The position numbers and the translations under genes are program-made. 64,000 nt of DNA from an uncultured Chloroflexia bacterium (GTDB lineage: Bacteria > Chloroflexota > Limnocylindria > Limnocylindrales > CSP1-4), in contig CAVSKS010000009.1 of NCBI GenBank assembly GCA_963728605.1, positions 397,447 to 461,446 of the forward strand. The letters are read 5' to 3'. Shown here piece after piece: positions 9,645-35,420 of the stretch. Position 1 is the stretch's first letter. Each line of letters begins with the position of its first letter. The notes under the pieces are model-generated. The model was not told the DNA's origin. It was given only the letters and a program-made list of their open reading frames with translations, and did no database searches.

Positions 9645-9653
9645 CTGAGCGGA

Positions 9654-10325: not shown

Positions 10326-10327
10326 GG

Positions 10328-15780: not shown

Positions 15781-18700
15781 TCAGCGAACCCGAACGGGTC
15801 GATGCCGCCGGTACGACGCCAGCCACGCGGCGGCGCCCAGCAGCGCGAGCAATGCAGCCGCGACGGTGAAGGACGGCGACGCGCTGCCGTCAGCGAGCAT
15901 GGCGGTGTCCGGAATGTCGATGACCTCGAGGGGCGCCGTGAGGCTCAGTACCGCACCCTCTGGGTCGACCCCACGCGCCTCGACGTCAAGCCAGCCATCG
16001 GAAGCGGTGGTTGGGACCGTGATCCAGACACTGACGTTGCCATCCTCGTCGGCGACCACGGTGGCCACGAGGCCGGGCTCGGCGAGGAGCCAGATCTCGA
16101 CGGTCGATCCCGGCATGAAGCCGGTAGCGGTGACCAGGACCTTGCCGCCCGGCGAGGTGGCCTCGCGGTCGAGAGCGATCGAGGGCGACGCAGCCGACGG
16201 CGGCGTGGTCGGCCCTTCCACGGTGAAACTCACGGTGACGGGATCCGCGGCCGCCACGTTGGCGTTGCCGGGCTGGCTGGCCGTGACCGTGCACGTGCCC
16301 GGTCCGGTGATCGTCAGGGTCGACCCGGTCACCGAGCAGGCGCCGGTTGCGGTGTAGGTGATCGGCAGGCCGGCCGACGAGGTCGCATCGAGGTCGATCG
16401 GCCCGTCATCGGTGGTCGCGTCGGGTGGCGCCACGAACGTGATGACCTGGTTCGCCTTGGTGACGGTGATCTCGACGCTGATGGTGACCGTTTCGTAATT
16501 CGAACCGTCGGTCGGGGTGAAGGTGACGGTCAGGGTATGTGCCCCGGCGCCCAGGACGGCGCCCGCGGCGGGGCCGTAGACATACGTCCCCGGGACCGAC
16601 GCGCCGGCGTTCAGCTGCGTACCAGAGAGGGGCGTGCCGTAGGTGATGTCGTCCGGATCGGCCCAGGTCACCACCGGGGTCGCCTTGGCCACCGCGAACG
16701 AGCGGCTGACGTCGGCGGCGGCTGCATGGTTGGCATCGCCCGGCTGGTGGGCCGTGACCACGCAGGTCCCGACACCGCTGATCGTGAGCGTCGTCCCGGA
16801 CACACTGCAGGGACCGGACGTCGTGAACGTGACCGGCAGTCCCGACGTGCTCGTGGCCGACAGGCTGATCGGACCGTCGTCGAACGTCGCACCGCTGAGG
16901 GCACCGAAGGAAATGGACTGCGCGGCAGGATCGACGGTCAGCCACCCGTCCACGTAGTCGAACACGTACGAGCCGCTTGAAAGGCCGGACGCCGAGACCG
17001 CGTACGTCCCGACGGGGCTCGAAAGGGTGGCCGCGGTGGCGAACGCAAGGCTTCCGCCAAGGTCGCCGGCGTCGTCGCCGTTGACGAAGCCGCTGAAGGT
17101 GACACCGAACGCGGGGTTCGGGTCGCCGTACGGGCGCGAGCTGTCGTTGACGGTGACGGTGAGAGTGACGGGGCCGATCGTGAACACGCCGGTTCCACCG
17201 ATGACGAAGTCGTAATTGGTGGCGGCCAGGGTCCCGACCGTGCACGTGATCGTGTACTCGCCGGCCGGGTCGCCCGTCGTCGCATCGGTCGTGCAGGCGG
17301 CGGATCCGGAGACGACCGTGTCATCGTCGCCCGCCACGAAGCCGGTGATGTCAACGGCGAAGGTCGTGGGGACCGGGTCGCCCATCGGGATCGCCGTGTC
17401 GACCGGGGTGACCGTCAGGGTCGCCTTGGTGACCGACAGGCTGCCGGCCGCAAAAGTGATCGCATAGTTGGGCGACGACAGGCCCGAGGCGCTCACGGTG
17501 TAGCTGCCGACACTGCTGCCGCTGCCGGCCGATGTCGTGAAGATCAGCGTGCCGACGAGGTCGGCGATGGTGTCGCCGTTCTGGAAGCCGGTGATCGTCA
17601 CACCGAACGCAGGGTTGGCCGCGCCGTACGTCTTGGTGGCCGAGTCGACGGTGATCGTGAGGTCGGCCGGTTCCACGGTCAGCGTGGCCGTGCCCGAGAG
17701 GTCGAAGGTGTAGTTGGCGGCGGCCAGCGAGCCGACCATGCAGGTGATGGGGTAGGTCCCGACCGGGGAGGTCGCGACGGCGGGCGTCGAGCAGGCGGGA
17801 GCGCCCGACAGGTCGCCCGCGTCGTCGCCGTTGACGAATCCGCTGTAGGCCACCGTCAGCGGCGGGTTGGCAGCACCGTAATCCCGCGACTGCGCGTCCG
17901 GGGTCACGGTCAAAACGACCGGGTCGACCGTCAAAGTCCCATCGACGAAGGTGATCGCGTAGTCGCTGCTCGTGTAGCCGCTGCAGGAGATGGCGTACCC
18001 GCCGACGTTGCTCGCCGACGTCGCACTGGTGCCGCAGGTCAGGGTCCCGCCTAGGTCGCCCGCGTCGTCGCCGTTGACGAAGCCGCTGAAGGTGACCCCG
18101 AACGTCGGGTTCGGGTCGCCGTAGTCGCGCGCGACGTCCATCACCGTGACGGTGAGCGCGGCGGCACCGACCGTCAGCGTCCCGGGGACGAAGGTGATGT
18201 CGTAGTTGGCGTCGGTCGCCCCCGAAACGGTGATGGGGTAGGTGGCCGGGCTGCTGGAGGCGACGGCCGTAGTGGACAGGCTGGCGGGCGTGTCGAGGTC
18301 GCCCGGATCGTCACCATTGACGAAGCCGGCGTAGGTCGCGCTGAACGTGGGGTTGGGGTCGCCATAGGGGCGGGCGGCGTCGTCGGCCGTGATCGTGAGC
18401 GAGGCCTTGGAGATCGTCAGGTTTGCGGGCGTCCAGGTGAACGCGTAGTTCGCGCTGGTGAGCCCCGACGGGGTAACGGGATACGTCCCGACCGGGCTGG
18501 CGGCCGTTGCGGACGTCGAGAAGCCGAGGGTGCCGCCGAGGTCACCCGCGTCATCGCCGTTGACGAAGCCGCTGAACGACGCGCTGAACGCCGGGTTCGG
18601 GTCGCCGTAGGTCTTGCCGGCCGCGACCGTCGAAACGGTCAGGGGCGCCTGGGAGATCGTGAACCCTGCCGAGCTCCCGTTGCTCGTCGCATGCGTCGAG

Positions 18701-20160
18701 TCGCCCCCGTACGCGCCGGACAGCGAGCCCGTACCGACGCCAGTGGCGGTGTAGGTGACCGTGCAGCTGGCGCTGGAGGACGTGGCCGCGGCGAGGGTGC
18801 ACGTGGTCGACGTACCCAGGACGCCCGACATCGCGACGCTGCCGGTCGGGACCGTGGGGCTGCCGCTGATGTCGGTCACGGCGACCGTGCACGTCTTGGT
18901 TCCGCCGTACAGGATCGCGCCGGCCGGACAGGTGACGGTCGTGGTCGTCGCGGCGACCACGGGCCCGACCGTCTGGGCAGTGCCGCCGGTCCCGGTGATC
19001 GTCGCCACGCCGTCGCTGCCGGTTCCGGTCGCGGCATTGGCGATCGTCATGAATGTCCCGATGTCGCCCACACCCGGCGTGACGGATACCCGGATCGTCG
19101 CGCTGATGGCGGCCGCGCCGCCGAGGATGGTCCCGGGCGTCCAGGTGACGGTCTGGCCTACGGCCCCGATGCTGCCGCTGGCGGTGCTCTGCGAGACGAT
19201 CGAGATCCCCGCGGGCATCACGACCGAGATGCTCGGGCTGAACAGCGATGAGCCGGCGGTGTTCTGGGCGGTAACCAGGACGTCGTAGACGCTGGCGCTG
19301 CCGTCCTGTGGTGGGTTCGGGCCGCTGACATGGCTCTTGCTCTGGGTGAAGGTCAGCGTGGGGGGGCTCAGGACGACCGTGGCGAGGTTCGCGAAGCTGA
19401 TCGCGGAGCCGGTCATGTAGTCCTTGTTGATCGTCGCCAGGTTCGCAGCCGCGGACGAGCCGAAGAAGAGACGGACCGGCGTGCTCGCCGTGACAAGCCC
19501 TGCTGAGGCTGTGGCAAGCGTGCTGACCGGAACCTGCCAGTCGATGAAGTACTGGCCGCCACCGGCGGCGACGACGCGGGCGCCGGTGCCGACCGCGTTG
19601 AGCGGATCGAACGCTGGTGCGGCGGTGTTGAACTGGTACACATCGGTGATGCCGGTGCCGGGCGCATTGCCGACGTAGACCGTATCGGGCGCTGCGACGG
19701 ACCCGACGGGCTTGCCGTTGACCCCGGTGACGGCCTTGGTCGTCCAGACGCCGGGGCTGTCCTGCGTCGCGAGGAGCACGAGCCAGGTCGCGTTGTCGAA
19801 GCCGCCTTTCGAGGTGTCCACGGGGTTGGTCCCGACCCGCACCCGGAAGAACGCCGTCCCGCCCGAGACGGCCAGGAAGACGGACGTCGACCCGCCACCA
19901 CTGGAACTGATGTCGTACACGGAGCCGACGCCCGACTCTCCCTCGACGTCGGAGATCGGCGTGCCCGTGTCGCTCGTGTAGCTGGTGAACGACGACGGCC
20001 ACGAGATCGGCGTCGCGTTGGGCGGGTTCGGATAGACCGTGCCGGCGTCGACGACGGGTGCGACGAGCAGCAGCTGCGCTGCGATCGCGGCCACGAGCCC
20101 AAGCAGTGAGGAGATCCGCTGGGTGCGCGGACGCGGGTTCGGGGCAACGCGGAACGGCAT
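15781..20160 (-). CDS. giant secreted surface protein (1459 aa) with MBG (YGX-type) tandem repeats, Ig-like domains and a C-terminal TM anchor
   Basis: N-terminal signal peptide (SSLLGLVAAIAAQLLLVAPVVDA). Seven ~81-aa repeats with YGDPNP..F.GFVNGDD.GDL..Y.I....NY.I.F..G.LT[IV]. C-terminal hydrophobic helix plus basic tail (AALLALLGAAAWLASYRRHRPVRVR). Confidence 0.85.
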   Translation of the reverse strand: MPFRVAPNPRPRTQRISSLLGLVAAIAAQLLLVAPVVDAGTVYPNPPNATPISWPSSFTSYTSDTGTPISDVEGESGVGSVYDISSSGGGSTSVFLAVSGGTAFFRVRVGTNPVDTSKGGFDNATWLVLLATQDSPGVWTTKAVTGVNGKPVGSVAAPDTVYVGNAPGTGITDVYQFNTAAPAFDPLNAVGTGARVVAAGGGQYFIDWQVPVSTLATASAGLVTASTPVRLFFGSSAAANLATINKDYMTGSAISFANLATVVLSPPTLTFTQSKSHVSGPNPPQDGSASVYDVLVTAQNTAGSSLFSPSISVVMPAGISIVSQSTASGSIGAVGQTVTWTPGTILGGAAAISATIRVSVTPGVGDIGTFMTIANAATGTGSDGVATITGTGGTAQTVGPVVAATTTTVTCPAGAILYGGTKTCTVAVTDISGSPTVPTGSVAMSGVLGTSTTCTLAAATSSSASCTVTYTATGVGTGSLSGAYGGDSTHATSNGSSAGFTISQAPLTVSTVAAGKTYGDPNPAFSASFSGFVNGDDAGDLGGTLGFSTSATAASPVGTYPVTPSGLTSANYAFTWTPANLTISKASLTITADDAARPYGDPNPTFSATYAGFVNGDDPGDLDTPASLSTTAVASSSPATYPITVSGATDANYDITFVPGTLTVGAAALTVTVMDVARDYGDPNPTFGVTFSGFVNGDDAGDLGGTLTCGTSATSASNVGGYAISCSGYTSSDYAITFVDGTLTVDPVVLTVTPDAQSRDYGAANPPLTVAYSGFVNGDDAGDLSGAPACSTPAVATSPVGTYPITCMVGSLAAANYTFDLSGTATLTVEPADLTITVDSATKTYGAANPAFGVTITGFQNGDTIADLVGTLIFTTSAGSGSSVGSYTVSASGLSSPNYAITFAAGSLSVTKATLTVTPVDTAIPMGDPVPTTFAVDITGFVAGDDDTVVSGSAACTTDATTGDPAGEYTITCTVGTLAATNYDFVIGGTGVFTIGPVTLTVTVNDSSRPYGDPNPAFGVTFSGFVNGDDAGDLGGSLAFATAATLSSPVGTYAVSASGLSSGSYVFDYVDGWLTVDPAAQSISFGALSGATFDDGPISLSATSTSGLPVTFTTSGPCSVSGTTLTISGVGTCVVTAHQPGDANHAAAADVSRSFAVAKATPVVTWADPDDITYGTPLSGTQLNAGASVPGTYVYGPAAGAVLGAGAHTLTVTFTPTDGSNYETVTISVEITVTKANQVITFVAPPDATTDDGPIDLDATSSAGLPITYTATGACSVTGSTLTITGPGTCTVTASQPGNANVAAADPVTVSFTVEGPTTPPSAASPSIALDREATSPGGKVLVTATGFMPGSTVEIWLLAEPGLVATVVADEDGNVSVWITVPTTASDGWLDVEARGVDPEGAVLSLTAPLEVIDIPDTAMLADGSASPSFTVAAALLALLGAAAWLASYRRHRPVRVR
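16936..18652 (-). repeat. array of 7 tandem MBG-type coding repeats (~243 nt each) inside the giant surface-protein gene
   Basis: The DNA block gttgacgaagccgctgaaggtgac.ccgaacg..gggttcgggtcgccgta recurs near 17080-17130, 18070-18125 and 18555-18610, with more diverged copies between. Confidence 0.8.
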
Positions 20161-20347
20161 GTCGGTCGGGACCTCTGGTTTCGACTGATCCGGCGGACGT
20201 GGGCGGTGCCCGCCAGCACCAGGACGATTGGGTTGTCCAATGGACCATGCCGTCCGGCGGGCGTATCCCGCGATGGCCCGATCGTCCGGGCCAAGCAGGG
20301 ACCTGTGGCGTTCTCACCTACGGAGCAGCGGCCCCAGCCGCGTGTGC

Positions 20348-20353
20348 GACAAT
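20348..20353 (+). promoter_or_regulatory. -10-like GACAAT (preceded by TGc) 9 nt upstream of typA ATG (candidate leaderless promoter)
   Basis: Extended -10-like tgcGACAAT; no SD before ATG 20363. Confidence 0.35.
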
Positions 20354-20362
20354 CCGCCGCCC

Positions 20363-22264
20363 ATGAGGATCGAGTCCCGTCCCGCCGTGCGCTCCGACCT
20401 GCGCAACGTGGCCATCGTCGCCCATGTCGACCACGGCAAGACGACGCTCGTCGACGCGATGCTCCGCCAGACGGGTGCCTTCCGGGCCAACCAGGCGCTG
20501 GTCGACCGGGTCCTCGATTCGGGCGATCTCGAGCGGGAGAAGGGGATCACGATCCTCGCCAAGCAGACCACGGTCGATTACGGCGACATTCGCCTCAACA
20601 TCGTCGACACGCCGGGACACGCCGATTTCGGTGGCGAGGTCGAACGAAGCCTGCTGATGGTCGACGCCGTGCTGCTCCTCGTCGATGCGGCGGAAGGGCC
20701 ACTGCCGCAGACCCGCTACGTGCTCCAGAAAGCAATGCAGCGGCACCTGCCGGTGGTCGTTGCGATCAACAAGATCGATCGCTCCGATGCCCGTGCGCCG
20801 GAGGTCCTCGACGCGATCTACGAGCTGTTCATGGACCTAGGGGCGGACGCGCACCAGATCGAGTTCCCGGTCGTGTATACGAACGCCAAGGCCGGGACCG
20901 CCACCCGCTCGCTGGACGAGCCGGGCACGGACCTCCGACCGCTGCTCGACGTCCTCGTCGAGGTCACGCCGCCGCCGACCCACGAGGTTGGCCATCCGCT
21001 CCAGCTCCTGGTGACCAACCTCAGCGCCAACGAGTACGTGGGGCGGATGGCCGTCGGCCGGATCCGGAACGGTCGGATCCGGATGGGCCAGCGGATCGCG
21101 GTGGTCCGCGATGAGCCGGACGACACCGCGGGGACGGTCGAGCCGGGCCGGACGGTGACGCTCAACGGCACGGTGACCAGCCTCCAGACGGCGCGCGGGA
21201 TCGAGCGCGTCGACATCGACGAGGCCGGTCCCGGCGACATCGTCTCGGTCGCGGGACTGCCGGAGGTCACGATCGGCGACACCCTGACGGACCCCTCGGA
21301 TCCGAAACCGCTGCCGCGCCTCGACGTCGACGCGCCCACCCTCCGGATGACGTTCGGGGTCAACACCTCGCCGTTGGCCGGCAAGGAAGGCAAGTTGCTC
21401 ACCTCGCGCCAGATCCGGGCACGCCTCGACAAGGAGGTGCTCGGCAATGTCTCGATCGAGCTCCATCCCACCGAGACCGGCGACACGTTCGAGGTTCGCG
21501 GCCGTGGCGAGCTCCAGCTGGCCGTCCTGATCGAGCAGATGCGTCGCGAGGGCTTCGAGATGACGGTCAGCCGGCCGGAGGTGATCCTCCACGACGTGGG
21601 CGGCGAGACCCAGGAACCCTACGAGCGGGTCACGATCGACATCCCGCCCGATTACATCGGCGAGGTTCAGACGGGCCTTGCCGGCCGGAAGGGCCGGCTC
21701 GAGCAGATGTCGACCGACGCGGACGGGCGGGTCCGGATGGAGTACGTCCTCCCGGTCCGCGGGCTGATCGGCTACCGGGGACAGCTCCTGACCGACACCC
21801 GTGGGACGGCCCTCCTCCACCAGATCGGCGAAGGCTACGGCCCGTGGGCCGGCGAGGTGACCCACCGCACGAACGGTGTCCTGGTCGCCGATCGCAACGG
21901 CACGAGCAACGCCTACGCTTTGTTCAACCTCCAGGAACGGGCGGAGCTGTTCATCGGCGCCGGGGTCGACGTCTACGAGGGCATGGTCGTCGGCGAGAAC
22001 TCGCGGTCGGGCGATCTCGACGTCAACCCGACCAAGGAGAAGAAGCTCACCAACATCCGGACCCACGCCCACGACGAGGCACTCCGGTTGACACCGCCCC
22101 GCCCGCTGACCCTCGAATCGGCGATCGAGTTCATCGCCGTGGACGAGCTGGTCGAGGTCACGCCGGCCTCGATACGGCTCCGCAAGCGCCTCCTGTCGCA
22201 GCACGACCGGCGCCGTGAGCGTGGCCGCGAGGACGACCTCCGCCGGGGCGCCGAAGCTTCGTAG
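20363..22264 (+). CDS. typA: translational GTPase TypA/BipA
   Basis: [44 protein letters not shown]-like domains follow. Confidence 0.95.
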
Positions 22265-22340
22265 CCGGCCGGTTGCAATACGGGCCATCGCGCCCCGATA
22301 CTGCCGCGACCAAGGAAGGCGACGACTGGAGGTCGGGCAG

Positions 22341-23558
22341 GTGCGGCGTGCGGCTCGGGTGGCGTTCCTCGGCATCCTCGCGACCGGCTGGACGGTTGGG
22401 CTCCCTTCCGCTCAAGCGGGCGCGCCCGCCGAGGTCAGCATCTTCGTCGCGTCCTGGCGGTACTGGATCACTACCGATGAATCCACCACCCGGGAGCGGA
22501 TCTGGTTCGCCATCGACGTCATCAATACGTCGCCGTATCGGGTCGGCGGATATGCGACCGCGAGATTCCAGTACACGATGGGCAGTGGCTACGTCGAGAA
22601 CGCCGTCATCGTGGGCAATCTCTCGCCGGCGAACCTGGCCCCGGGCCTGCACGGGTCGACGCTGACGTCCTACCTCGCGCCAGGTGGATCCAACATCCAG
22701 TCGGTCACGGTCACGGGCGTGACCGCGGGTGGGTATACCCAGCCCGCACCGTTTGGAGCGGTCGGGATGTCGACGACCGGTCCCATCGCCTACAGCCCCA
22801 AGCTCGACGAAATGGCCGTTCCGATCGTCATCCGGAATCGACGCTCCACGCCGGTGACGGTCTGGAAGGTGTCGGCCGCGTTCTTCGCCGCAGACGGCAC
22901 CATCCTGACTGTCGGGAGCAGCGATGTAGACGCAGTTATCGCTCCATTCGATGAGTGGACGATCTGGATCTACGCGGAGGCTCCCGGTATTCCGGTCAGC
23001 GTGCGGCTCGGGATGACCTCCTCGCCGGCGGGCCAGATCGTGACCTGGGACAACTGGTTCCACGACATCGGCACGTCGACGTTCCAGAACGACATTGCCT
23101 GGATCGCGGAGGCGGGGATCACCCGCGGTTGCGAAGCATTCCGCTACTGCCCGATCGCCGGCGTGACCCGGGCCCAGATGGCCAGCTTCCTGGTCCGAGC
23201 ATTCACCCCGACGGCGATCATCAGTGATCACTTCACCGACGACGAGACGAGCACCCACGAGGCCGACATCAACTGGCTCGCGTCGGCCGGTTGGACCACC
23301 GGCTGCGGTGGCGGCAAGTACTGTCCCGACGCCGGCGTCACCCGAGCCCAGATGGCCAGCTTTCTGGTCCGAGCGCTTGAGATACCGCCGACGGCTGCGG
23401 ACTTCTTCACCGATGACGAGGCCAGCACCCACGAGGCGGACATCAACCGCCTGGCGGCCGCCGGCCTGACCTCCGGCTGCGGTGGCGGCAAGTACTGCCC
23501 GACGGCGGGTGTGACCCGAGGCCAGATGGCGGCGTTCCTGCGACGGGCGTTGGAGTAG
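22341..23558 (+). CDS. secreted protein: unknown beta-rich N-terminal region plus 3 C-terminal SLH-like Cys-pair repeats
   Basis: GTG 22341 lies 8 nt after GGAGG. Signal peptide RRAARVAFLGILATGWTVGLPSAQA. The C-terminal triple repeat is shared with the next two genes. Confidence 0.75.
   Translation: MRRAARVAFLGILATGWTVGLPSAQAGAPAEVSIFVASWRYWITTDESTTRERIWFAIDVINTSPYRVGGYATARFQYTMGSGYVENAVIVGNLSPANLAPGLHGSTLTSYLAPGGSNIQSVTVTGVTAGGYTQPAPFGAVGMSTTGPIAYSPKLDEMAVPIVIRNRRSTPVTVWKVSAAFFAADGTILTVGSSDVDAVIAPFDEWTIWIYAEAPGIPVSVRLGMTSSPAGQIVTWDNWFHDIGTSTFQNDIAWIAEAGITRGCEAFRYCPIAGVTRAQMASFLVRAFTPTAIISDHFTDDETSTHEADINWLASAGWTTGCGGGKYCPDAGVTRAQMASFLVRALEIPPTAADFFTDDEASTHEADINRLAAAGLTSGCGGGKYCPTAGVTRGQMAAFLRRALE
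23058..23555 (+). repeat. 3x SLH-like Cys-pair module (coding)
   Basis: F.D...S.HE.DI.WLA.AG.T.GC...YCP...VTRAQMASFLVRA, three copies. Confidence 0.7.
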
Positions 23559-23606
23559 GGCGCCGGCTGGCTCGGCGCGGACTCGTGCCGATCGGCTAAC
23601 GTGCAA

Positions 23607-23630
23607 CCGGACGGCGCGAGGCCGTCCCGG
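23607..23630 (+). terminator. GC-rich hairpin between the first and second anchor-module genes (possible attenuating/terminating stem-loop, no U-tract)
   Basis: ccGGACGGC-gcgag-GCCGTCCcgg: a 7-bp stem extended by 2 bp across a bulge. Confidence 0.25.
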
Positions 23631-23659
23631 AACGGGTCTTCGGGGAGCACCACCAGGGC

Positions 23660-24952
23660 ATGATTTCGCGCCACAGGACGAGTCGGCCATCGGCCCAGCG
23701 GCGCTTCCTTCTCCCGCTCCTCAGCCTGGCTCTGGCCACTTCCGCGCTCGCGGCCTTGCCGGCGGGGCCGTTCGCCACCCGCGCCACCGCCGCCACGGAC
23801 CGGCTGCCGGACCTCCGGATGGCCAAGCTGTCCGACTTCCACATCGTCACCACGTCGTCCGGACGACGCCTGCTGCGGTTCACCGCGCTGATGCTGAACC
23901 TGGGGGCCGGCGCGTTCGAGGTCCGATCGACGCGCCCGAACACCAGCACCCCGTGGGACATCAACCAGGTCGTGTTCGACGACGCCGGAGGCTCCCGCAA
24001 CGTCGACACGACTGCGACGATGACCTACGGCGGCGACGGCCACGGCCACTGGCACATCGCGTCGGTGGTCGACAGCGACCTGTTCAACGAGAACCGCACG
24101 GTCCATGGCTCCAAGATCGGGTTCTGCTTCTTCGATACGACGCTGTGGTCGCCGAGCCTGCCCGGATCCCCGGCATCGCCCCGGTACCGGGAGACCGACT
24201 GCGCCCGCCAGAGCGAGCTGGTCAACACCAGCGGGATCTCCGTTGGCTGGGGCGACCTCTACCAGTGGACGTTGCCGATGCAGTGGATCGACATCACCGA
24301 CGTTCCCGCCGGTGACTACTACTTGCGCTCGATCGTCGATGCACGCGACCGGTTCCTCGAGTCGTCGAACACCAACAACTGCACCTACACCCGGATCCGG
24401 ATCAATGCCAGCGGCACGGGCTACACGGTCCTTGGCACAGGTGCGGTCTGCGTCACGGACTGGGCCACATCGCCATTCGCCGACGACATCGCCTGGCTGT
24501 ACGCGGCGGGTCTCACGACCGGCTGCGGAATCGAGCTGTTCTGCCCCAACCGCGCCGTCCCCCGGGCGGAGATGGCCAGCTTCCTGGTCCGCGCATTCGC
24601 GATCCCCGCATCGAAGGTCGACGCGTTCACAGATGACGACGGCTCGACTCACGAACCCGACATCAACGCCCTCGCTGCCGTGGGACTCACGACCGGCTGC
24701 GGGCCGCCTGGCTACTGCCCGGACCGGACCGTGACCCGGGCCGAGATATCCTCGTTCCTTGCCCGCGCGCTCGGCCTGCCGACCACCACCATCGACTCCT
24801 TCGCCGACGATGAGGGAATCAGCCACGAGTGGGCGATCAACGCCCTCGCCGCCGCCGGGATCACGACCGGCTGCGGTCCGGCGGCGTTCTGCCCCAACCA
24901 GTCGATGCTCCGCGGCCAGATGGCCGCCTTCCTCCACCGCGCGCTGGGATGA
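23660..24952 (+). CDS. lysyl-oxidase (LOX) family copper amine oxidase homologue fused to 3 SLH-like Cys-pair repeats; Tat-like signal peptide
   Basis: LPDL..LLRF, HGHWH (HxHxH Cu site), SKIGFCFFDT, GDLY..QWIDITDV, NTNNC all match the LOX catalytic domain. SAQRRFLLPLL is a twin-arginine-like motif. Confidence 0.85.
   Translation: MISRHRTSRPSAQRRFLLPLLSLALATSALAALPAGPFATRATAATDRLPDLRMAKLSDFHIVTTSSGRRLLRFTALMLNLGAGAFEVRSTRPNTSTPWDINQVVFDDAGGSRNVDTTATMTYGGDGHGHWHIASVVDSDLFNENRTVHGSKIGFCFFDTTLWSPSLPGSPASPRYRETDCARQSELVNTSGISVGWGDLYQWTLPMQWIDITDVPAGDYYLRSIVDARDRFLESSNTNNCTYTRIRINASGTGYTVLGTGAVCVTDWATSPFADDIAWLYAAGLTTGCGIELFCPNRAVPRAEMASFLVRAFAIPASKVDAFTDDDGSTHEPDINALAAVGLTTGCGPPGYCPDRTVTRAEISSFLARALGLPTTTIDSFADDEGISHEWAINALAAAGITTGCGPAAFCPNQSMLRGQMAAFLHRALG
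24476..24949 (+). repeat. 3x SLH-like Cys-pair module (coding)
   Basis: Same module as at 23058-23555, e.g. FTDDDGSTHEPDINALAAVGLTTGCGPPGYCPDRTVTRAEISSFLARAL. Confidence 0.7.
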
Positions 24953-24968
24953 TCGAAAGGGAGATGCC

Positions 24969-26681
24969 ATGACCCGCCAGCTCCGCCGCCGCCTTGGATC
25001 CCTGGTCACGATCGCCGTCCTGGCGACGGGCGCCATCGGGGCGCCAGGGGCGCTGGCCCGTACCTCCACGACCGCGGGCGAGCCTGCCCCGGCACCGACC
25101 GCCCTGGCGGCGGGTCAGCTCCAGTTCAAGTTCATCGATTCGGGGCTGTCCACGCCCGTCGGCATCGTCAACGCGGGTGATAGCAGCGGCCGGCTGTTCA
25201 TCGTCCAGCAACGCGGCGTCGTCCGGGTCGTCAAGAACAATGCCGTCCAGGCGGGGTCGTTCATGAACATCGCCTCGAAGGTGTCCCAGAGCGGCAACGA
25301 GCGAGGACTCCTGGGTCTGGCGTTCGATCCGGACTTCGAGACCAACCGCCGGCTGTTCGCCTACTACACCCGGGCCAGCGACGGCGACATCATCATCTCC
25401 CGCTTCCTTGCCGATCCGGGGCTCGCGACCGTCAACGAGGGCAGCGAGGTGCTGCTCCTGCGGATCGAGCACAGCACATACCCGAACCACAACGGCGGCC
25501 AGCTGGCATTCGGCCCGGATGGCTTCCTCTACGCGGCCATCGGCGATGGCGGCGGGTCGGGCGACCCGTCCAACAACGGCCAGGACAAGAACACCCTCCT
25601 CGGCAAGCTCTTGCGGATCAACCCGGATGGCACCGGTTCCGGCCCGTACAACACGTATTCCGTACCGTCGGACAACCCGTTCGTAGGCGAAGCCGGCTAC
25701 GACGAGATCTGGGACTACGGCCTCCGAAACCCGTGGCGGTTCAGCTTCGACCGGGCGACCAGCAACCTGTGGATCGCCGACGTTGGGCAGAACCGGTACG
25801 AGGAGGTCAACCGCGAGTCGGCGAGCAGCCCTGGCGGGGTCAACTACGGCTGGGACGACATGGAGGGCAAGCACTGCTACGAGAGTGGTTGCTCGTCGGC
25901 CGGCAAGACCCTGCCAATCGCCGAGTACGGGCACACCCTCGGCTGCTCGGTGACCGGTGGGTATGTCTATCGCGGCACGACCCAGCTCGACCTCGTCGGC
26001 AACTACGTCCTCGGCGACTACTGTTCGGGACGCGTCTGGACGATTCCCGCGGGCGGCACCACCCTCACCCAGCGGCTCGACACCAGCCTCTCGATCTCAT
26101 CCTTCGGTGAGAGCGAGTCAGGCGAGCTCTATGCCGTCGACGCGAGTGGCGGCCGGCTGTACCGCGTCGTGGCCCCCGAGTTCAGCGACATCCTAGCCTC
26201 GTCGTTCATCGACGATATCCACTGGCTGTTCTACGCGGAGATCACGTTCGGCTGCGGCGGCACGCGCTATTGCCCGAGGGACCCGGTGACCCGGGCCGAG
26301 ATGGCCTCCTTCCTGACGCGGGTCCTCGACCTGCCGCCAAGCCCTACCGATTACTTCAGCGACGACGAGTCGTCGCTCCACGAGGGCGCGATCAACTCGC
26401 TGGCCCGCGCCGGGATCACCGGTGGCTGCGCGACCAACCAGTACTGCCCGGAGCGGAACGTGCTCCGGGGTGAGATGGCGACCTTCCTCGTCCGGGCGCT
26501 CGAGATCGCCCCGACGGCCACCGATTACTTCACCGACGACGGGTCGTCCAGCCACGAGGCCAACATCAACGCGCTCCGGGCAGCCGGCCTGACGTCGGGC
26601 TGCAGCGCCACCACCTACTGCCCGAATGCCATCGTCACCCGCGAGCAGATGGCGGCCTTCCTGCACCGCGCCTTCGACTGA
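24969..26681 (+). CDS. PQQ-dependent sugar dehydrogenase-like beta-propeller (GSDH/sorbosone-dehydrogenase family) fused to 3 SLH-like Cys-pair repeats
   Basis: ATG 24969 lies 5 nt after AAGGGAG. Signal peptide present. [65 protein letters not shown]. Confidence 0.8.
26181..26678 (+). repeat. 3x SLH-like Cys-pair module (coding)
   Basis: Same module, e.g. [49 protein letters not shown]. Confidence 0.7.
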
Positions 26682-26691
26682 CAAGGGTTGG

Positions 26692-26718
26692 GCCCGGCCG
26701 GCGACCGACCGGCCGGGC
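26692..26718 (+). terminator. strong GC hairpin after the anchor-module cassette (I-shaped terminator candidate, no U-tract)
   Basis: gCCCGGCCGG-cgaccga-CCGGCCGGGc: a perfect 9-10 bp stem, 11 nt after the stop. It abuts the TACAAT hexamer of iscS. Confidence 0.45.
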
Positions 26719-26719
26719 G

Positions 26720-26725
26720 TACAAT
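26720..26725 (+). promoter_or_regulatory. -10-like TACAAT 9 nt upstream of the cysteine desulfurase ATG (candidate leaderless promoter)
   Basis: TAnnnT hexamer; no SD before ATG 26735. Confidence 0.45.
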
Positions 26726-26734
26726 CGCCGCCCG

Positions 26735-27922
26735 ATGGCGATCTATCTCGACCATGCCGCGACGACCCCGCTGCGGGCGGAGGTCCTCGAGGCCATGCTC
26801 CCGTACCTGACCGAGGCGTTCGGCAATCCCAGCTCGGCGCATGCCTTCGGGCGGGCGGCCCGGGCGGCCCTCGACGAGGCCCACGAGCGGGTCGCTGCCC
26901 GCCTCAACGCGGAGCCCCGGGAGATCGTCTTCACCTCTGGCGGGACGGAGGCCAACAACCTGGCGATCAAGGGCGCGGCCTGGGCATCGAAGGCGCGCGG
27001 CCACCGGATCGTGACCACCGCGGTCGAACACCACGCCGTGGGGCACACCCTGCGCTACCTCGAGAAGTTCGGCTTCGAGGTCGTCGAGCTGCCGGTCGAC
27101 CGCTACGGGCGGGTCGATCCCGATGCCCTGGACGCGGCGATCGACGACCGGACGGTGCTCGTCAGCGTGATGCTCGCCAACAACGAGGTGGGCACGGTCC
27201 AGCCGATCGCCGAGATCGGCAAGCGGGTCAAGGCCCACAAGGGCGTGCTGTTCCACGTCGACGCCGTCCAGGCGGCGCCGTACGTCGACATCGACGTGGA
27301 GAAGCTGGGCGCCGACTTCGTGGCCATGGGCGCCCACAAGTTCGAGGGCCCCAAGGGCGTTGGGGCGCTGTACATCCGCCACGGGACCCACATCCTGGCC
27401 CAGCAGCACGGGGGCGAGCAGGAACGGCATCGCCGGGCCGGCACGGAGAACGTCGCTGGAGCGGTTGGGTTGGCCGCCGCGTACGACCTGTGCTGCCAGG
27501 AACGCCCCGAGACGAACAAGCGACTGCGGCGCCTCCGCGACAAGCTCAGGACCGCCGTGCTGGCGGTCGACGGCACGGAGCTGACCGGGCATCCCAACGA
27601 GCGCCTGCCGGGGATCCTCTCGATCGTGGCCCGCGATACGGACGGTTCGGCCGTGGCCCTGTCGCTCGACCTCGAGGGCATCGCCTGCTCCGTCGGCTCG
27701 GCGTGTACCACCGGCTCGACGGAGGTCAGCCACGTGCTGACCGCGATCGGCTACCCGGAGGAGGAGGCGCGCGGCGCCCTGCGCCTGTCGCTGGGTCGGA
27801 CGACGACCGACGAGGAGATCGAGACCGCGGCCGCGATCGTGCCCCGGGTCATCGCCTCGATGCGGACGGCGTCACCGCTGATCGCCGCGGATCCGCTGGG
27901 GCAGGGCGTCGGCGTCTCATGA
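26735..27922 (+). CDS. iscS: cysteine desulfurase (IscS/NifS/YrvO-type, class V aminotransferase)
   Basis: [47 protein letters not shown]-terminal [10 protein letters not shown] active-site Cys loop. Coupled to mnmA. Confidence 0.9.
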
Positions 27923-29058
27923 GCCGCGTCCTGGTGGCGATGTCGGGCGGGGTGGACTCGTCGGTCGCCGCGGCGCTCCTGCATGCGCAAGGCGAGGACG
28001 TCGTGGGCGTCTGGATGCGCCTCCACGACGTCGCCGACACGTACTCCGAGTTCAAGAAGAGCTGCTGCTCGCTCGACGCCGCGGACGACGCCCGGCGCGT
28101 CGCGGGCCAGCTGGGCATCCCGTTCTACGTGATGAACCTCGAGCGCGAGTTCGAGGCCGGCGTCCTCCAGCCGTTCCTCGACGCCTACCTCGATGGGCGG
28201 ACGCCCAGCCCGTGCGTCGACTGCAACACGTACGTCAAGTTCGGGGCGCTGCTGGGCCGGGCCCGCCACCTGTACGAGTGCGACGCCGTGGCCACCGGCC
28301 ACTACGCCAGGCGGGTGATCGGCGAGGACGGGCGGGCGCAACTGGCCCGGGCCCGCGACGCCGACAAGGACCAGACCTACTTCCTGTACGGCCTCCGCCA
28401 GGACCAGCTGGAACACGCGCGTTTCCCACTTGGTGAGCTGACCAAGCCCGAGGTCCGCGAGGTCGCCCGCGGGCTCGGCCTGGTGACTGCCGACAAGCCC
28501 GAGAGCCAGGAGATCTGCTTCGTCCCGGGCGGCGATTATCGGGAGGCCTTGCGCGAGCGGGCCGGCTGGCAGGCGGAGCCAGGGCCCCTCCTCGACGTCG
28601 ACGGCGAGCGCGTGGGGGACCACCGCGGGGCCGCCGGCTACACCGTCGGCCAGCGGCAGGGACTTGGCGTGGCCCTTGGGGCGCCGCGCTACGTGTCGCG
28701 GATCGACCCGCTGACCAACACGATCCAGCTGGGCCGGCGCGAGGACCTCGAGACCACGAGCTTTGCGGTCGAGCGGGTCACGTTCGTGGCCGATCGGCCG
28801 CCGGCGCGGGACGGCTTCCGGGCGTCGGTCCGGATCCGCCATCGAACGGCGCCGATTCCGGCCACCATTCGCCCACAGACGCCCGATGAGCCGGCCCGGG
28901 CCGGCCGCTGGATCGTCGAGACCGACGAGCCGGTGTGGGCTGCGGCCCCTGGCCAGGCCTGCGTGTTCGACGACGGCGACCTGGTCCTGGGCGGTGGACG
29001 CATCTCCCGCCCGACGCCGGCGGTCGCGGCCGGCCCGGTTCTGGCCGCGAGCGCCTGA
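27919..29058 (+). CDS. mnmA: tRNA 2-thiouridine(34) synthase MnmA
   Basis: ATGA overlap with iscS. PP-loop [26 protein letters not shown]. Confidence 0.9.
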
Positions 29059-31404: not shown

Positions 31405-34158
31405 ATGCCCGCCGCTGAGATCCGGCGCCGGTTCGTCGAGTACTTCGCCGAGCGCGGCCACGAGGTGGTGCCCAGCGCGAGTCTGATCCCCGCGAGTGAC
31501 CCAACACTGCTGTTCACCAATTCGGGGATGGTGCCCTTCAAGAACGTCTTCACCGGCGTCGAGAAGCGGCCCTATAGCCGCGCCGTCAGCGTTCAGCGCT
31601 GCCTCCGCGTGGCCGGCAAGCACAATGACTTCGAGGAAGTCGGCCGGACACCGCGCCACCACACGTTGTTCGAGATGCTCGGCAACTGGAGCTTCGGCGA
31701 CTACTTCAAGCGCGAGGCGATCCACTGGGCGTGGGACTTCCTGACCCGGGAGCTGGGCCTGCCGCCGGACCGGATCGCGGCCACGACCTACACCGACGAC
31801 GAGGTCGCCTGGAACATCTGGCGTGACGAGATCGGGCTGCCGCCGGAGCGGATGGCCAAGTGGGGCAACGTCGACGCCGGCGACGACAAGAACTTTTGGC
31901 GGATGGCGGAGACCGGGCCATGCGGCCCGTGCAGCGAGCTCCACTACGACCGTGGTGCCTCGTTCAGCGAAGGTCCCCACTGCATCCCCGACCACAGCGA
32001 GACCTGCCCCCGCTGGCTGGAGGTCTGGAACCTGGTGTTCATGGAGTTCGATCAGCGGCCCGACGGCCGGGTACCGCTGCCGTTCCCGAGCGTCGACACG
32101 GGTCTCGGGCTGGAGCGGATCAGCAGCGTCGTCCAGCAGGTGCCCACCAACTACGACACGGACCTGTTCCTGCCGGTCCACCAGCGGATGCGCGAGCTGC
32201 TGGGCCACGACCCCGACGACTTCGAGCAGGAGCGCTTCAGCTACCAGGTCATCGCCGATCACTCGCGGGCGGCGACCTTCCTGGTTGCCGACGGCGTCCT
32301 GCCATCGAACGAGGGTCGCGGCTACGTCCTCCGCAAGCTCGTCCGGCGGGCCGTCCGGCACGGCCGACTGCTGGGCCGGCGGGAGCCGTTCCTCCACGAG
32401 ACCGCCGCCGTGGTGATCGACGTGATGGGGGATGGCTATCCCCATCTCGTCGACGGTCGGGAGACGATCATCGGGACCATCCTCCGCGAGGAGACGCAGT
32501 TCGGCCGGACGCTCGACGCCGGGACGGTCCTGCTCGAGGAGGCATTGATCCCGCTGACCTCCGCCGAGCGGCAGGTGGGCCGCCGACCGGAGGACCTGCC
32601 AGCCGACGCTCCGAGGCTGTCCGGCGACGTCGCGTTCAAGCTCCACGACACCTACGGCTTCCCGATCGACCTCACCGTCGAGCTGGCGTCGGAGTACGGC
32701 GTGACCGTCGACCGGGATGGGTTCGAGGTCGCCCTGGCGGAGCAGCGTGAGCGGAGCCGCAGCGGCCGGAAGGCCGACATGAGCCGCCACGCGGAGCAGA
32801 TGTCGCTGTACGAGGGCGTCCAGCGCCAGCATGGCGACACCGAGTTCCTGGGCTACGAGACGACGACCGCCGAGGCGCGGGTCGTCGACATCATTCGCGA
32901 CGGTACGCGCTACGACGAGCTCGAGGCCAGGGGCGACATCGAGCTGCGGACGGACGCCGAGGCGTCGGCCGAGATCGTCCTAGACCGGACGCCGTTCTAC
33001 GCCGAGGGCGGGGGTCAGATCGGCGACCAGGGGGAGCTGCATCTCGGCGGCGAGGGCGGCGAGATCGTGTTCACGGTCGAGGACACCCAGAAGCCCGTTG
33101 GCGGGCTGATCGTCCACCGCGGCAAGCTGCGCGGAGCCCTCAAGGTCGGTGACGCGGTCACGGCCGTCGTCGACCCAGACCGGCGGGCCCACACCATGCG
33201 CAACCACACCGGCACGCACCTCCTCCACCGGGCGCTCCGCAACGTGGTCGGCGACCGGGCTCGCCAGGCCGGTTCGCTCGTCACGCCCGACTCTCTGCGG
33301 TTCGACTTCCCGCTCGATCGCGGGCTCAGCGGCAAGGAGCGTTGGGCGATCGAGGACGAGGTTCGCCGAATCATCCGCGACGACCGAACCGTCACGCCGT
33401 CGTACATGACGATGCCCCAGGCCATCGAGGCAGGCGCCGACGCCTTCTTCGACGAGAAGTACGGCGAAACCGTCCGAACCGTCCGAGTGGATGGCTACAG
33501 CCACGAGCTGTGCGGCGGGACCCACTGCCGGGCCACCGGCCAGATCGGCTCGTTCCTGATCACCGGCGAGCGGAGCATCGGCTCGGGGATGCGCCGGATC
33601 GAGGCCCTGACCGGGGCCGGCGCCGATGCCTGGCTGCGGGACCGCGTGGACCGGCTCGAGGCGGCAACCGAAGCCGCCGGCGCCCAGTCCGTAGAGGCGC
33701 TTCCGGACCGGATCCGGGTTCTCCAGAACGAGCTTCGGGAGACCCGGCGCCGCGTTCGCGAAGGCGGCGGAGCGGCGCTGCCCAAGGCAGGGGACCTCGC
33801 CTCCCGCGCCGAGGAGATCGTGCCCGGCGTCCGGCTCGTCGCCGCGAGCGCGCCGTGGGAGTCGATCGAGGCGGTCAAGGGCGTCGCCAAGGATGTCCGT
33901 GGCAGCCTGCCGTCGGGCGTCGTTGCCCTCGCCCTCGACGCCGACGAGCCCCAGATCTTCGTCACCGTGAGCGACGACCTCGTCGCCATGGGCATCAAGG
34001 CCGGCGACCTCGTCAGGGTGGCCATGGAGCCACTCGGTGGCAAGGGTGGCGGCCGGCCGGAGATGGCCCAGGGCAAGGGCGCCCACAGGGATGGCCTCGC
34101 GGCGGCACTCGACGCCATCGGCACGGCACTTCGGTCGCGTGACGGGCAGGAGGGCTGA
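31405..34158 (+). CDS. alaS: alanine--tRNA ligase
   Basis: MPAAEIRRRFVEYFAERGHEVVPSASLIPASDPTLLFTNSGM, GNWSFGDYFK, HTGTHLLH, C-terminal DHHA1-like domain. ATG 31363 (14 codons upstream) is an alternative start. Confidence 0.95.
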   Translation: MPAAEIRRRFVEYFAERGHEVVPSASLIPASDPTLLFTNSGMVPFKNVFTGVEKRPYSRAVSVQRCLRVAGKHNDFEEVGRTPRHHTLFEMLGNWSFGDYFKREAIHWAWDFLTRELGLPPDRIAATTYTDDEVAWNIWRDEIGLPPERMAKWGNVDAGDDKNFWRMAETGPCGPCSELHYDRGASFSEGPHCIPDHSETCPRWLEVWNLVFMEFDQRPDGRVPLPFPSVDTGLGLERISSVVQQVPTNYDTDLFLPVHQRMRELLGHDPDDFEQERFSYQVIADHSRAATFLVADGVLPSNEGRGYVLRKLVRRAVRHGRLLGRREPFLHETAAVVIDVMGDGYPHLVDGRETIIGTILREETQFGRTLDAGTVLLEEALIPLTSAERQVGRRPEDLPADAPRLSGDVAFKLHDTYGFPIDLTVELASEYGVTVDRDGFEVALAEQRERSRSGRKADMSRHAEQMSLYEGVQRQHGDTEFLGYETTTAEARVVDIIRDGTRYDELEARGDIELRTDAEASAEIVLDRTPFYAEGGGQIGDQGELHLGGEGGEIVFTVEDTQKPVGGLIVHRGKLRGALKVGDAVTAVVDPDRRAHTMRNHTGTHLLHRALRNVVGDRARQAGSLVTPDSLRFDFPLDRGLSGKERWAIEDEVRRIIRDDRTVTPSYMTMPQAIEAGADAFFDEKYGETVRTVRVDGYSHELCGGTHCRATGQIGSFLITGERSIGSGMRRIEALTGAGADAWLRDRVDRLEAATEAAGAQSVEALPDRIRVLQNELRETRRRVREGGGAALPKAGDLASRAEEIVPGVRLVAASAPWESIEAVKGVAKDVRGSLPSGVVALALDADEPQIFVTVSDDLVAMGIKAGDLVRVAMEPLGGKGGGRPEMAQGKGAHRDGLAAALDAIGTALRSRDGQEG

Positions 34159-35420
34159 TGGCCTTCTGGCGCCGGATCTGGCAACGCGACGGCGAACCGG
34201 CGCTGGCCGCCTGCACGGCACTGGACATCGGGACGGAATTCGCGAAGGCGCTCGTCTTCGAGATCGACGAGACCGGCAAGGGAACCATCAAGGGCGTCGG
34301 GCGCAAGCGGCAGGGCCTGTCGCACATGCAGTCGGGGACCGTGGCCGACATCGCCGCCGTCGTCGACAACTGCGCGATCGCGCTCCAGGAGGCCGAGGAG
34401 ATGGCCGGCTTCCGGCCGTCGCAGGTGGTGATCGGCATCGCCGGCGAGCTGGTCAAGGGCTTCACCACGACCCATTCCCAGGAGCGCAGGAAGCCCGACC
34501 AGCCGATCACCGAGGGCGAGCTCCAGAAGCTGATCGACGGCGTCCAGCGGGAGGCGCTCCGCGAAGCAGAGCGGGCCATCATCTGGGAGACCGGCCTGCC
34601 GCACGTCGACGTCCGCCTCGTCCACGCGGCCGTGGTCGGCGCGGCGATCGACGGCTACGCGCTGACCAATCCGGTCGGCTTCCAGGGCCGGCACGTCAAG
34701 ATCGGAATCTTCAACGCGTTTGCCCCGCTGGTCCACCTCGGTGCGCTCCAGAGCGTCGCCAGCCAGCTGGACCTGGAGCTGCTCGAGATCGTGGCCGAGC
34801 CGTACGCCGTCGCCCGCGTGCTTGGCCAGGACAACGTCCGCCAGTCCGGGGCGCTGTTCGTTGACGTCGGCGGCGGTACGACCGACGTCGCCCTCGTCCG
34901 GCAGGGCGGCATCGAGGGCACCCGGATGTTCGCCCTCGGTGGCCGGGCCTTCACCAAGTCGCTGGCCGATCGCCTGGATCTGCCCTTTCCACGCGCGGAG
35001 TCGCTCAAGGTCGACTATGCCCGCGGGCTGCCCGTCGACCAGCGTGAAGCGGTGGCGGAGATCGTCGCCGACGACGTGGCGGTCTGGGCGGCCGGCGTCG
35101 AGCTGGTCATGGAGGAGCTGGCCGCGGGTGACCTGCTGCCCGGCCGGATCTACCTCTGTGGCGGCGGCTCGCGACTCCCGGAAGTGCCCGCGGCGCTCGC
35201 CGCGGAAGCGTTCTGGAAGCGCCTCTCGTTCGCCCGGCCGCCGGAAGTCACGGTGATGTCGCCGGACCAGGTCGAGGGGATCGTCGATGCGACGGAGCTC
35301 CTCGTCGACCAGCAGGACGTCACCCCGCTCGGGCTGGCCTACCAGGCGATCGAGCTCCAGACGACCGAGGCTCCGCTCGACGTCGCCCTGCGGCGGGTCC
35401 TGCGGGCGATGAAGGTCTGA
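34158..35420 (+). CDS. actin-fold ATPase of the FtsA/PilM type
   Basis: TGATG overlap with the alaS stop. Phosphate-1 ALDIGTEFAKALVFE, phosphate-2 LFVDVGGGTTDVALV, adenosine motif IYLCGGGSRLPEV. Confidence 0.8.
   Translation: MAFWRRIWQRDGEPALAACTALDIGTEFAKALVFEIDETGKGTIKGVGRKRQGLSHMQSGTVADIAAVVDNCAIALQEAEEMAGFRPSQVVIGIAGELVKGFTTTHSQERRKPDQPITEGELQKLIDGVQREALREAERAIIWETGLPHVDVRLVHAAVVGAAIDGYALTNPVGFQGRHVKIGIFNAFAPLVHLGALQSVASQLDLELLEIVAEPYAVARVLGQDNVRQSGALFVDVGGGTTDVALVRQGGIEGTRMFALGGRAFTKSLADRLDLPFPRAESLKVDYARGLPVDQREAVAEIVADDVAVWAAGVELVMEELAAGDLLPGRIYLCGGGSRLPEVPAALAAEAFWKRLSFARPPEVTVMSPDQVEGIVDATELLVDQQDVTPLGLAYQAIELQTTEAPLDVALRRVLRAMKV

Follow-up and report, generated by a model that had tools for sequence, protein, structure and literature searches.

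A lysyl oxidase gene and an HHIP-like propeller gene kept together at a Limnocylindria surface-protein locus

Introduction

When genes for exported proteins lie side by side and carry the same anchor, do their products work together, or do they only share an address in the genome? The question is raised by three adjacent genes, here called P1, P2 and P3, in a 64,000-nt stretch of DNA from an uncultured Chloroflexia bacterium (contig CAVSKS010000009.1). We refer to this whole stretch, which has a G+C content of about 70%, as the window, and coordinates without a locus label are positions in it. The G+C content had at first suggested an actinobacterium; homologues and synteny point instead to a soil member of the Chloroflexota of Limnocylindria type. 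An earlier note on this DNA had read the three genes as one cassette, encoding a β-rich protein, a lysyl oxidase (LOX) homologue and a β-propeller of the GSDH type, which next to a giant MBG-repeat protein suggested an extracellular cross-linking module. Our comparison with related genomes locates the conserved unit in the pair formed by P2 and P3. The three genes are laid out as follows:

P1: 22341..23558, + strand, 405 aa; signal peptide at about 22341-22418, two predicted FxLYD-like β-sandwiches at about 22419-23054, three SLH modules at 23055-23558
P2: 23660..24952, + strand, 430 aa; RR-containing signal peptide in roughly the first 31-44 aa, lysyl oxidase domain at about 23792-24448, three SLH modules at 24449-24949
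P3: 24969..26681, + strand, 570 aa; signal peptide of about 30 aa, predicted six-bladed GSDH/HHIP-like propeller at about 25059-26174, three SLH modules at 26181-26678

The open reading frames are co-directional as the earlier note described them, with spacers of 101 nt between P1 and P2 and 16 nt between P2 and P3. The SLH, LOX and GSDH assignments that it proposed agree with the Pfam profiles, all of which score above their curated cutoffs, and with matches to solved structures in the Protein Data Bank (PDB).

The LOX-GSDH pair in related genomes

A scan limited to one genome per species returned 347 relatives, of which 80 were kept as representative loci, nearly all of them from metagenome-assembled genomes (MAGs) of Chloroflexota/Limnocylindria. 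These were surveyed by tblastn and with a hidden Markov model (HMM) of the SLH module, and a GSDH homologue within 1.5 kb of LOX was counted as adjacent. By this measure LOX and GSDH were neighbours in 49 of the 80 loci, in three arrangements. The most frequent, found in 34 loci, has LOX followed by GSDH, mostly between the genes typA and nifS, an interval that we call the typA-nifS slot, and its propeller carries SLH modules in about 12 cases and lacks them in about 22. GSDH precedes LOX in eight loci, where both proteins carry SLH modules and the genes lie in contexts other than the typA-nifS slot. The two genes are divergently transcribed in the other seven, with SLH modules on neither protein and with varying neighbours, so that the LOX-GSDH pair is the sole constant.

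The two families also diverge in step. Across 45 pairs, the pairwise identities of LOX and those of GSDH correlate with r = 0.87, a value reached in none of 999 Mantel permutations, and the three LOX/GSDH clades coincide with the three gene orders. Spacing within the pair is tight, from 16 nt in the window and 14 nt in locus L003 to 2 nt in L085 and a one-base overlap in L086 and L088; P2 and P3 are probably co-transcribed, and members of such pairs would often be translationally coupled. A search for a third conserved partner by all-against-all clustering of open reading frames was blurred by antisense frames in the high-G+C DNA, and the locus-by-locus view of the divergent class shows LOX and GSDH only.

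These data must be weighed against the possibility that there is no functional coupling at all, the typA-nifS gap being a hot spot for genes of SLH exoproteins and LOX and GSDH being independent surface enzymes that were inherited together. In keeping with such a view, the contents of the slot vary (PD40-SLH proteins, P1-like proteins, a 243-aa membrane protein, or LOX alone), all the compared genomes belong to one class, and LOX genes without an adjacent GSDH make up 31 of the 80. However, the pair is also found away from the slot, with two further gene orders, among unrelated neighbours and without SLH modules, the two proteins co-diverge as described, and gaps of 0-16 nt or overlapping stop and start codons are typical of co-translated partners. 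We consider independent inheritance unlikely, although it is the alternative to which we would give the most weight. The pattern as a whole exceeds inherited synteny and points to selection that keeps both genes together.

The lysyl oxidase and the propeller

P2 matches the Pfam Lysyl_oxidase profile (PF01186) with an E-value of 1.7e-15 (57.7 bits, the cutoff being 20.4; the match spans positions 84-195 of the 204 in the profile) and aligns to the structure of LOXL2 (5ZE3) with an E-value of 2.2e-9. The copper-site motif H-x-H-x-H of P2, DGHGHWH, falls on DCHRHYH of LOXL2, GSKIGFCFFDT on GHKASFCLEDT, and GDLYQW on WDMYRH; the elements GDLYQW and QWIDITDV are conserved. Across 12 homologues, which are 47-73% identical to P2, H80, H82, H84, K104 and Y153 do not vary, and K104 and Y153 we take, from what is known of LOX and LOXL2, to be the Lys/Tyr pair that forms the lysine tyrosylquinone (LTQ) cofactor. 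P2 retains the complete predicted catalytic set of a lysyl oxidase. Its homologues number more than 2000; the few that carry source names come from Chloroflexota or from MAGs labelled 'Candidatus Limnocylindria/Limnocylindrales', and proteins that join LOX to SLH have already been annotated as such by the JGI and NCBI pipelines.

All LOX homologues with an intact N-terminus (P0002-P0114) have an Arg-Arg pair right before the hydrophobic core, as in RRFLLPLL, RRLLFAAS and RRLLPTLL, and the pattern is more regular than in the P1 family. It may represent a twin-arginine (Tat) signal for export of the folded copper enzyme; that Arg-rich n-regions are common in high-G+C genomes counts against this reading.

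P3 matches the Pfam GSDH profile (PF07995) over nearly its whole length (positions 2-331 of 332; E-value 3.1e-39, 135.6 bits against a cutoff of 25). Its best solved-structure match by sequence is the propeller of vertebrate HHIP (8e-27 for the single sequence), ahead of 3DAS (1.5e-22) and the E. coli protein YliI (2G8S; 1.9e-16), and 3A9G, 2ISM and soluble glucose dehydrogenase (sGDH) also rank behind HHIP. With a profile built from 27 members of the P3 family the E-value for HHIP was 1e-53, against about 1e-24 to 1e-27 for the dehydrogenases that depend on pyrroloquinoline quinone (PQQ), with 7CDY and sGDH weaker still, and the C-terminal (last) blade of P3 is HHIP-like. The family keeps the motifs H-N-G-G, D-V-G-Q-x3-E-E-[IV]-N and N-Y-G-W together with an invariant R-N-P-W; these active-site motifs align with those of YliI, and R-N-P and the central motifs have been lost in HHIP. 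The P3 family may represent an ancestral, enzymatic type of the HHIP/HHIPL propeller. The persistence of dehydrogenase active-site motifs in the nearest relatives that the HHIP propeller has among bacteria bears on the origin of this animal ligand-binding fold.

Proposed function of the pair

We propose that LOX and the propeller form a surface two-step amine-processing module, serving either nitrogen release and aldehyde removal or modification of the envelope, and we give this proposal a little better than an even chance. The exported proteins would be held on the wall by their C-terminal SLH trimers, where the copper/LTQ enzyme would oxidise primary amines (R-CH2-NH2), whether lysine or ornithine side chains or free amines, to aldehydes with release of NH3 and H2O2. 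LOX and propeller would act at the cell surface sequentially or on the same substrate, the propeller oxidising or capturing the carbonyl as its hydrate or hemiacetal form; hemiacetal or aldehyde carbons are what the propeller's family oxidises. The outcome would be release of nitrogen with detoxification of the aldehyde, or a controlled modification of some envelope component. The proposal is supported by the recombinant archaeal LOX of Haloterrigena, which is active, sensitive to β-aminopropionitrile (BAPN) and of broad amine specificity (PMC6452851).

Several observations weigh against the proposal. The partnership is not obligatory, as the 31 of 80 loci that have LOX without an adjacent GSDH attest, nor is joint anchoring universal, given the roughly 22 of 34 propellers that lack SLH modules in the commonest gene order. 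Part of the synteny is simply inherited, because all the comparators belong to one class. P3 may not use PQQ: its sequence resembles the non-enzymatic HHIP far more than the known PQQ enzymes, and the C-terminal Arg-x-Arg ligands that bind PQQ in sGDH and YliI seem to be absent from it. Finally, we know of no GSDH-family enzyme documented as acting on the products of a LOX. With regard to the cofactor, motifs do not decide whether P3 depends on PQQ, because a fungal AA12 enzyme that lacks several of the prokaryotic PQQ-binding residues (the paper is silent on which) uses PQQ all the same (PMC4133262).

A more specific version of the proposal would turn the chemistry on the cell's own envelope, with LOX and its HHIP-like partner producing aldehydes that create or tune covalent cross-links, as a bacterial counterpart of cross-linking in the animal matrix. 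In peptidoglycan the candidate targets are free side chains of ornithine or lysine in the stem peptides, and in SLH-anchored surface proteins they are the lysines. We regard this version as rather doubtful; if true, LOX and HHIP, two extracellular proteins of animals, would have bacterial relatives that serve in envelope cross-linking.

The conserved two-gene arrangement of amine oxidase and partner, and the tight coupling of the genes, could also mean that the propeller is a helper in maturation or cofactor formation, in the way that LodB and GoxB serve the quinone cofactor of LodA-type enzymes. We find this very improbable, since with Cu and O2 animal LOX generates its LTQ autocatalytically, LodB is a flavoprotein rather than a propeller, and the 31 LOX genes already mentioned stand without an adjacent partner. 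Moreover, Haloterrigena LOX refolds to an active enzyme on its own (PMC6452851).

The combination of H2O2 release by LOX with a partner fold that oxidises sugars or aldehydes would also suit a weapon or a means of defence. LOX would then make H2O2 from environmental amines, much as the marine lysine-epsilon-oxidase LodA generates H2O2, or it would inactivate aminoglycosides or polymyxin, with the partner processing the oxidised amino sugars. Haloterrigena LOX, with its relaxed specificity, does oxidise aminoglycosides and polymyxin (PMC6452851). However, the neighbourhood holds no resistance, regulator or immunity genes and the locus lies among housekeeping genes, and this explanation, drawn wholly by analogy, seems to us improbable. 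Two-step amine processing at the surface is the reading that we prefer for the pair.

The SLH anchor and its cysteine pair

P1, P2 and P3 match the Pfam SLH profile with 52.9, 45.8 and 56.3 bits, respectively, against a cutoff of 20.8. Exactly three modules of the form GC-x4-[YF]CP close each protein, as originally described, with a period of about 58 aa, or 174 nt in the DNA. An HMM made from the nine modules and run against all six frames of the window recovered these nine copies only, with E-values of about 1e-28 to 1e-34. The module consensus that had been drawn by eye needs correction: the spacer between the cysteines, given as three or four residues, is x4 in all nine modules, and the DD...HE part of the consensus is missing from module 1 of P1, P2 and P3. 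A [TPL]-R-[AGE]-[EQ] motif is found in 9/9 modules, and residues 275-426 of P2 align to residues 16-172 of Sap (3PYW) with an E-value of 1.1e-11 and also to SbsB (4AQ1). Because the DNA of the copies is just 62-78% identical, we judge the modules to be old repeats and not recent duplications.

The cysteine motif is invariant across the nine modules and thousands of homologues, and it sits where canonical SLH modules have G-x-x-D-G-x-F-x-P. The two cysteines probably form a disulfide that staples the loop. The Cys pair appears to mark an SLH subfamily of Limnocylindria and of some MAGs labelled Actinomycetota.

Each of the three proteins has, by eye, an N-terminus consisting of a basic stretch, a hydrophobic stretch and an AxA-type end, in line with the signal peptides that had been claimed, and all three look to be secreted and wall-anchored. 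The SLH trimer would tether them non-covalently to a secondary cell wall polymer that carries pyruvyl groups, by analogy with better-known SLH proteins. In one clade (loci L037/L090, L055, L058 and L081) the GSDH-LOX-SLH genes adjoin genes for a UDP-GlcNAc 2-epimerase, a CsaB-like PS_pyruv_trans protein, Wzx, GT4 and Wzy, and wall anchoring gains support because this cluster matches the enzyme set that makes the pyruvyl-ManNAc ligand of SLH trimers (PMC6030368, PMC11464976). No csaB-like gene was found within the 64-kb window.

Does the anchor that the three proteins share say anything about joint function? The earlier note had taken it as a sign of a system, while allowing that a module present on many unrelated secreted proteins would make the adjacency uninformative, and at the level of the lineage this is what was found. 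A search with full-length P1 gave 7036 significant matches, and among the top 120 of these the Cys-pair SLH trimer occurs in fusion with at least 20 unrelated domains, including VanY, GH18, CAP, peptidases S8 and M14, PD40/DPPIV, PKD, β-helix, Amidase_2, SNase, GSDH, LOX and others. The trimer is a generic predicted wall anchor of this lineage, and because it is generic it carries no weight as evidence that P1, P2 and P3 act together.

Two further SLH proteins were seen in the CsaB-linked clade. In L090 the gene directly after LOX-SLH (9246-10820) encodes an SLH protein of 524 aa that contains HEISHTLG, an HExxH motif, and is probably a zinc metalloprotease; SLH is its sole Pfam domain. Cys-pair SLH also occurs in small proteins with a single N-terminal module, such as that encoded at L090 10872-12368.

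The typA-nifS slot and its occupants

The genes that frame P1-P3, and the MBG gene beyond them, are the following:

MBG_2 x7 surface protein: 15781..20160, - strand, 1459 aa; outside the module
typA/bipA: 20363..22264 (approximate), + strand; Pfam GTP_EFTU and BipA_C; conserved left border of the slot
Hairpin: 26692..26718, + strand; perfect 10-bp G+C stem in the 53 nt that separate P3 from nifS
nifS/iscS-type cysteine desulfurase: 26735-27922, + strand; Pfam Aminotran_5; conserved right border of the slot
mnmA: 27919-29058, + strand; Pfam tRNA_Me_trans; conserved right border of the slot

The order typA-LOX(-GSDH)-nifS-mnmA recurs in related genomes, with typA 83-90% identical among the loci that have this slot. 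About 1 kb of other sequence separates LOX from nifS in 11 slot loci without an adjacent GSDH (L004-6, L014, L017, L019, L021, L030, L032, L046 and L056). Such a gap was read in L001 only, where the gene after LOX (11367-12098) specifies a membrane protein of 243 aa without a family match; it has a signal peptide, a β-rich stretch of some 150 aa and, at the C-terminus, two to three transmembrane helices. The slot of L040 (439-8261) is fuller and holds two tandem paralogous PD40 (TolB-like) propeller-SLH genes, then LOX-SLH, then two GSDH-SLH paralogues. The typA-nifS gap is a variable, expandable island of genes for SLH surface proteins.

P1 belongs to this island. Its N-terminal 210 residues have no Pfam match, and 16 family members gave nothing consistent. 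An AlphaFold2 model from an alignment of these 16 sequences (pLDDT 93.7) is all-β and consists of two consecutive sandwiches. A Foldseek search with the model returned just generic tandem Ig-like matches with TM scores of 0.2-0.3 (factor XIII barrels, arrestin, LacZ, RbmA), and from matches so generic we drew no function. The NCBIfam model FxLYD_dom (NF038353) matches 8 of the 16 family members, at best with an E-value of 3.1e-7, and does not match the window's own P1 at E <= 1. No catalytic motif and no conserved lysine was found in the N-terminal region of P1, which has two lysines, neither of them conserved; P1 as a substrate of LOX was rejected on that ground. As modelled, P1 is a non-catalytic protein of tandem FxLYD-like β-sandwiches, and in some lineages it occupies the island as an accessory.

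The genomic context of P1 was read from five exact-protein look-ups (L084-L088). P1-like proteins were found in none of the 80 representative loci by a search that detects them elsewhere at 28-38% identity. All five homologues with readable contigs sit in the typA-nifS slot. Three divergent genomes (L085, L086 and L088) have typA-P1-LOX-GSDH in the same order as the window, and in L084 and L087 the slot holds the P1-like gene without LOX or GSDH. The trio does recur; P1 itself follows the genomic slot and not LOX, and it is not a regular member of the LOX-GSDH module.

The MBG protein stands further off. Apart from a signal peptide it has seven Pfam MBG_2 repeats (3.5e-132), its C-terminus combines a hydrophobic segment with a basic tail, and SLH modules are missing. 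The gene is on the opposite strand, as first described, and not directly next to the cassette, since typA (+) lies between the two. It sits between an NTP_transf_3 gene and typA, which directly adjoin each other in L001 and L003, and tblastn found no MBG homologue in any of the 91 loci fetched, 88 of which (L004-L091) came in addition to the first three. The MBG gene looks like a lineage-specific insertion, and with typA intervening and no homologue in any related locus we rejected the MBG protein as a member of the module.

It is against this background that the dedicated cross-linking system first suggested for the locus has to be judged, in which the three SLH proteins and the MBG protein would act together, LOX making allysine in the repeat protein or in another envelope protein or polymer, with condensation as in the animal matrix. 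Animal LOX does perform allysine cross-linking, P2 retains its predicted catalytic set, the proteins would be wall-tethered, and the trio recurs in three other genomes. However, the MBG gene, on the opposite strand, is cut off from the cassette by typA and lacks homologues in related loci, P1 offers no conserved lysine and occurs without LOX, and the anchor common to the trio is generic. Cross-linking of the collagen type was, moreover, judged unlikely in bacteria by Grau-Bove et al. (PMC4448552), and we hold such a system to be quite unlikely here. The gene-neighbourhood comparison leaves the LOX-GSDH pair, in 49 of 80 species, as the core of the locus.

Gene starts and spacers

P1 starts with a GTG codon at 22341, 7 nt downstream of GGAGG, and corresponds over its full 405 aa to a database protein with 100% identity and coverage. 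The ATG of P3 is preceded by AAGGGAG. A 7-bp hairpin in the 101-nt spacer between P1 and P2 (23609-23627: GGACGGC, a 5-nt loop and GCCGTCC) could partially uncouple P1 from the P2-P3 pair. The terminator-like hairpin reported at 26692-26718 does have a perfect 10-bp stem, and for the 53-nt spacer around it the folding energy is -30.8 kcal/mol (z = -2.0). A U-tract is missing, and a consensus terminator scan gave no match there. The hairpin could be a terminator without a U-tract or an RNA-stabilising element. Consensus promoter and terminator scans of 20000-27200 gave no match, nor did a search of Rfam over 15-30 kb of the window.

Further along the window, downstream of alaS, another conserved gene pair encodes an FtsA/MreB-like actin-fold protein (34143-35420, +) followed by a Baseplate_J-like protein (35761-37206, +). 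It was also seen at L001 18105-21106, where ruvX is next, and at L003 19898-21290, and a domain of the phage-baseplate type is unexpected in such a housekeeping context.

Comparison with known systems

The closest parallel to the anchor is found in the SLH-trimer proteins of Firmicutes, such as Sap, EA1 and the BSLs of Bacillus anthracis and SpaA of Paenibacillus alvei, which bind a CsaB-pyruvylated polymer and, like the proteins described here, have three SLH modules with a T-R-[AG]-[EQ] motif. In both cases one anchor serves diverse catalytic domains, and CsaB-like and MnaA-like genes lie beside loci related to ours. The system differs from that of the Firmicutes in its Chloroflexota host, in the Cys pair of every module and in the C-terminal position of the anchor.

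For the oxidase, the LOX of Haloterrigena turkmenica (HTU-LOX) and the bacterial LOX surveyed by Grau-Bove et al. (2015) share with P2 the PF01186 domain, the copper-binding histidines, the LTQ lysine and tyrosine, and secretion. In that survey prokaryotic LOX were mostly single-domain proteins and no Chloroflexi were listed (PMC4448552); the fusion to an SLH trimer and the conserved neighbouring propeller gene set the present proteins apart. Prokaryotic LOX have been called 'enigmatic' and 'cryptic' (PMC6452851), and their function was left open in the survey (PMC4448552). The locus offers three handles on their role: a predicted cellular location, the SLH trimer of the wall, with genomic linkage to a pyruvylation locus; a conserved GSDH/HHIP-like partner, adjacent in the 49 species noted above; and, for comparison and biochemistry, a large set of natural variants that differ in gene order, of which there are three, and in having the anchor or not. 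The function of bacterial LOX thereby becomes testable, and the generic anchor and the MBG protein drop out as evidence for a system.

The propeller shares its six-bladed GSDH fold and the motifs H-N-G-G, R-N-P, DxGxxxxEE[IV]N and NYGW with soluble PQQ aldose/sorbosone dehydrogenases (YliI/Asd, 2G8S; sGDH of A. calcoaceticus; 3DAS of S. coelicolor; 3A9G of P. aerophilum). It differs from them in that its similarity to these enzymes is much weaker than to HHIP, in its HHIP-like C-terminal blade and in its SLH anchor. Vertebrate HHIP, in turn, lacks R-N-P and the central motifs, is a ligand-binding non-enzyme and has EGF domains where P3 has SLH modules. Like the LOX-GSDH pair, lodAB and goxAB are conserved two-gene units whose central enzyme is a secreted amine oxidase that produces H2O2 and has a quinone cofactor derived from protein, but they belong to unrelated families (a CTQ enzyme, with a cysteine tryptophylquinone cofactor, and a flavoprotein), and the partner there serves cofactor biogenesis.

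In the full-text literature we found no paper that combines a lysyl oxidase with a sorbosone dehydrogenase or with SLH, which agrees with the earlier statement that no system of this composition has been described. SLH-anchored exoenzymes, bacterial LOX and dehydrogenases of the GSDH fold are each known; it is the Cys-pair variant of the SLH module and the pairing of LOX with an HHIP-like propeller that look to be new descriptions.

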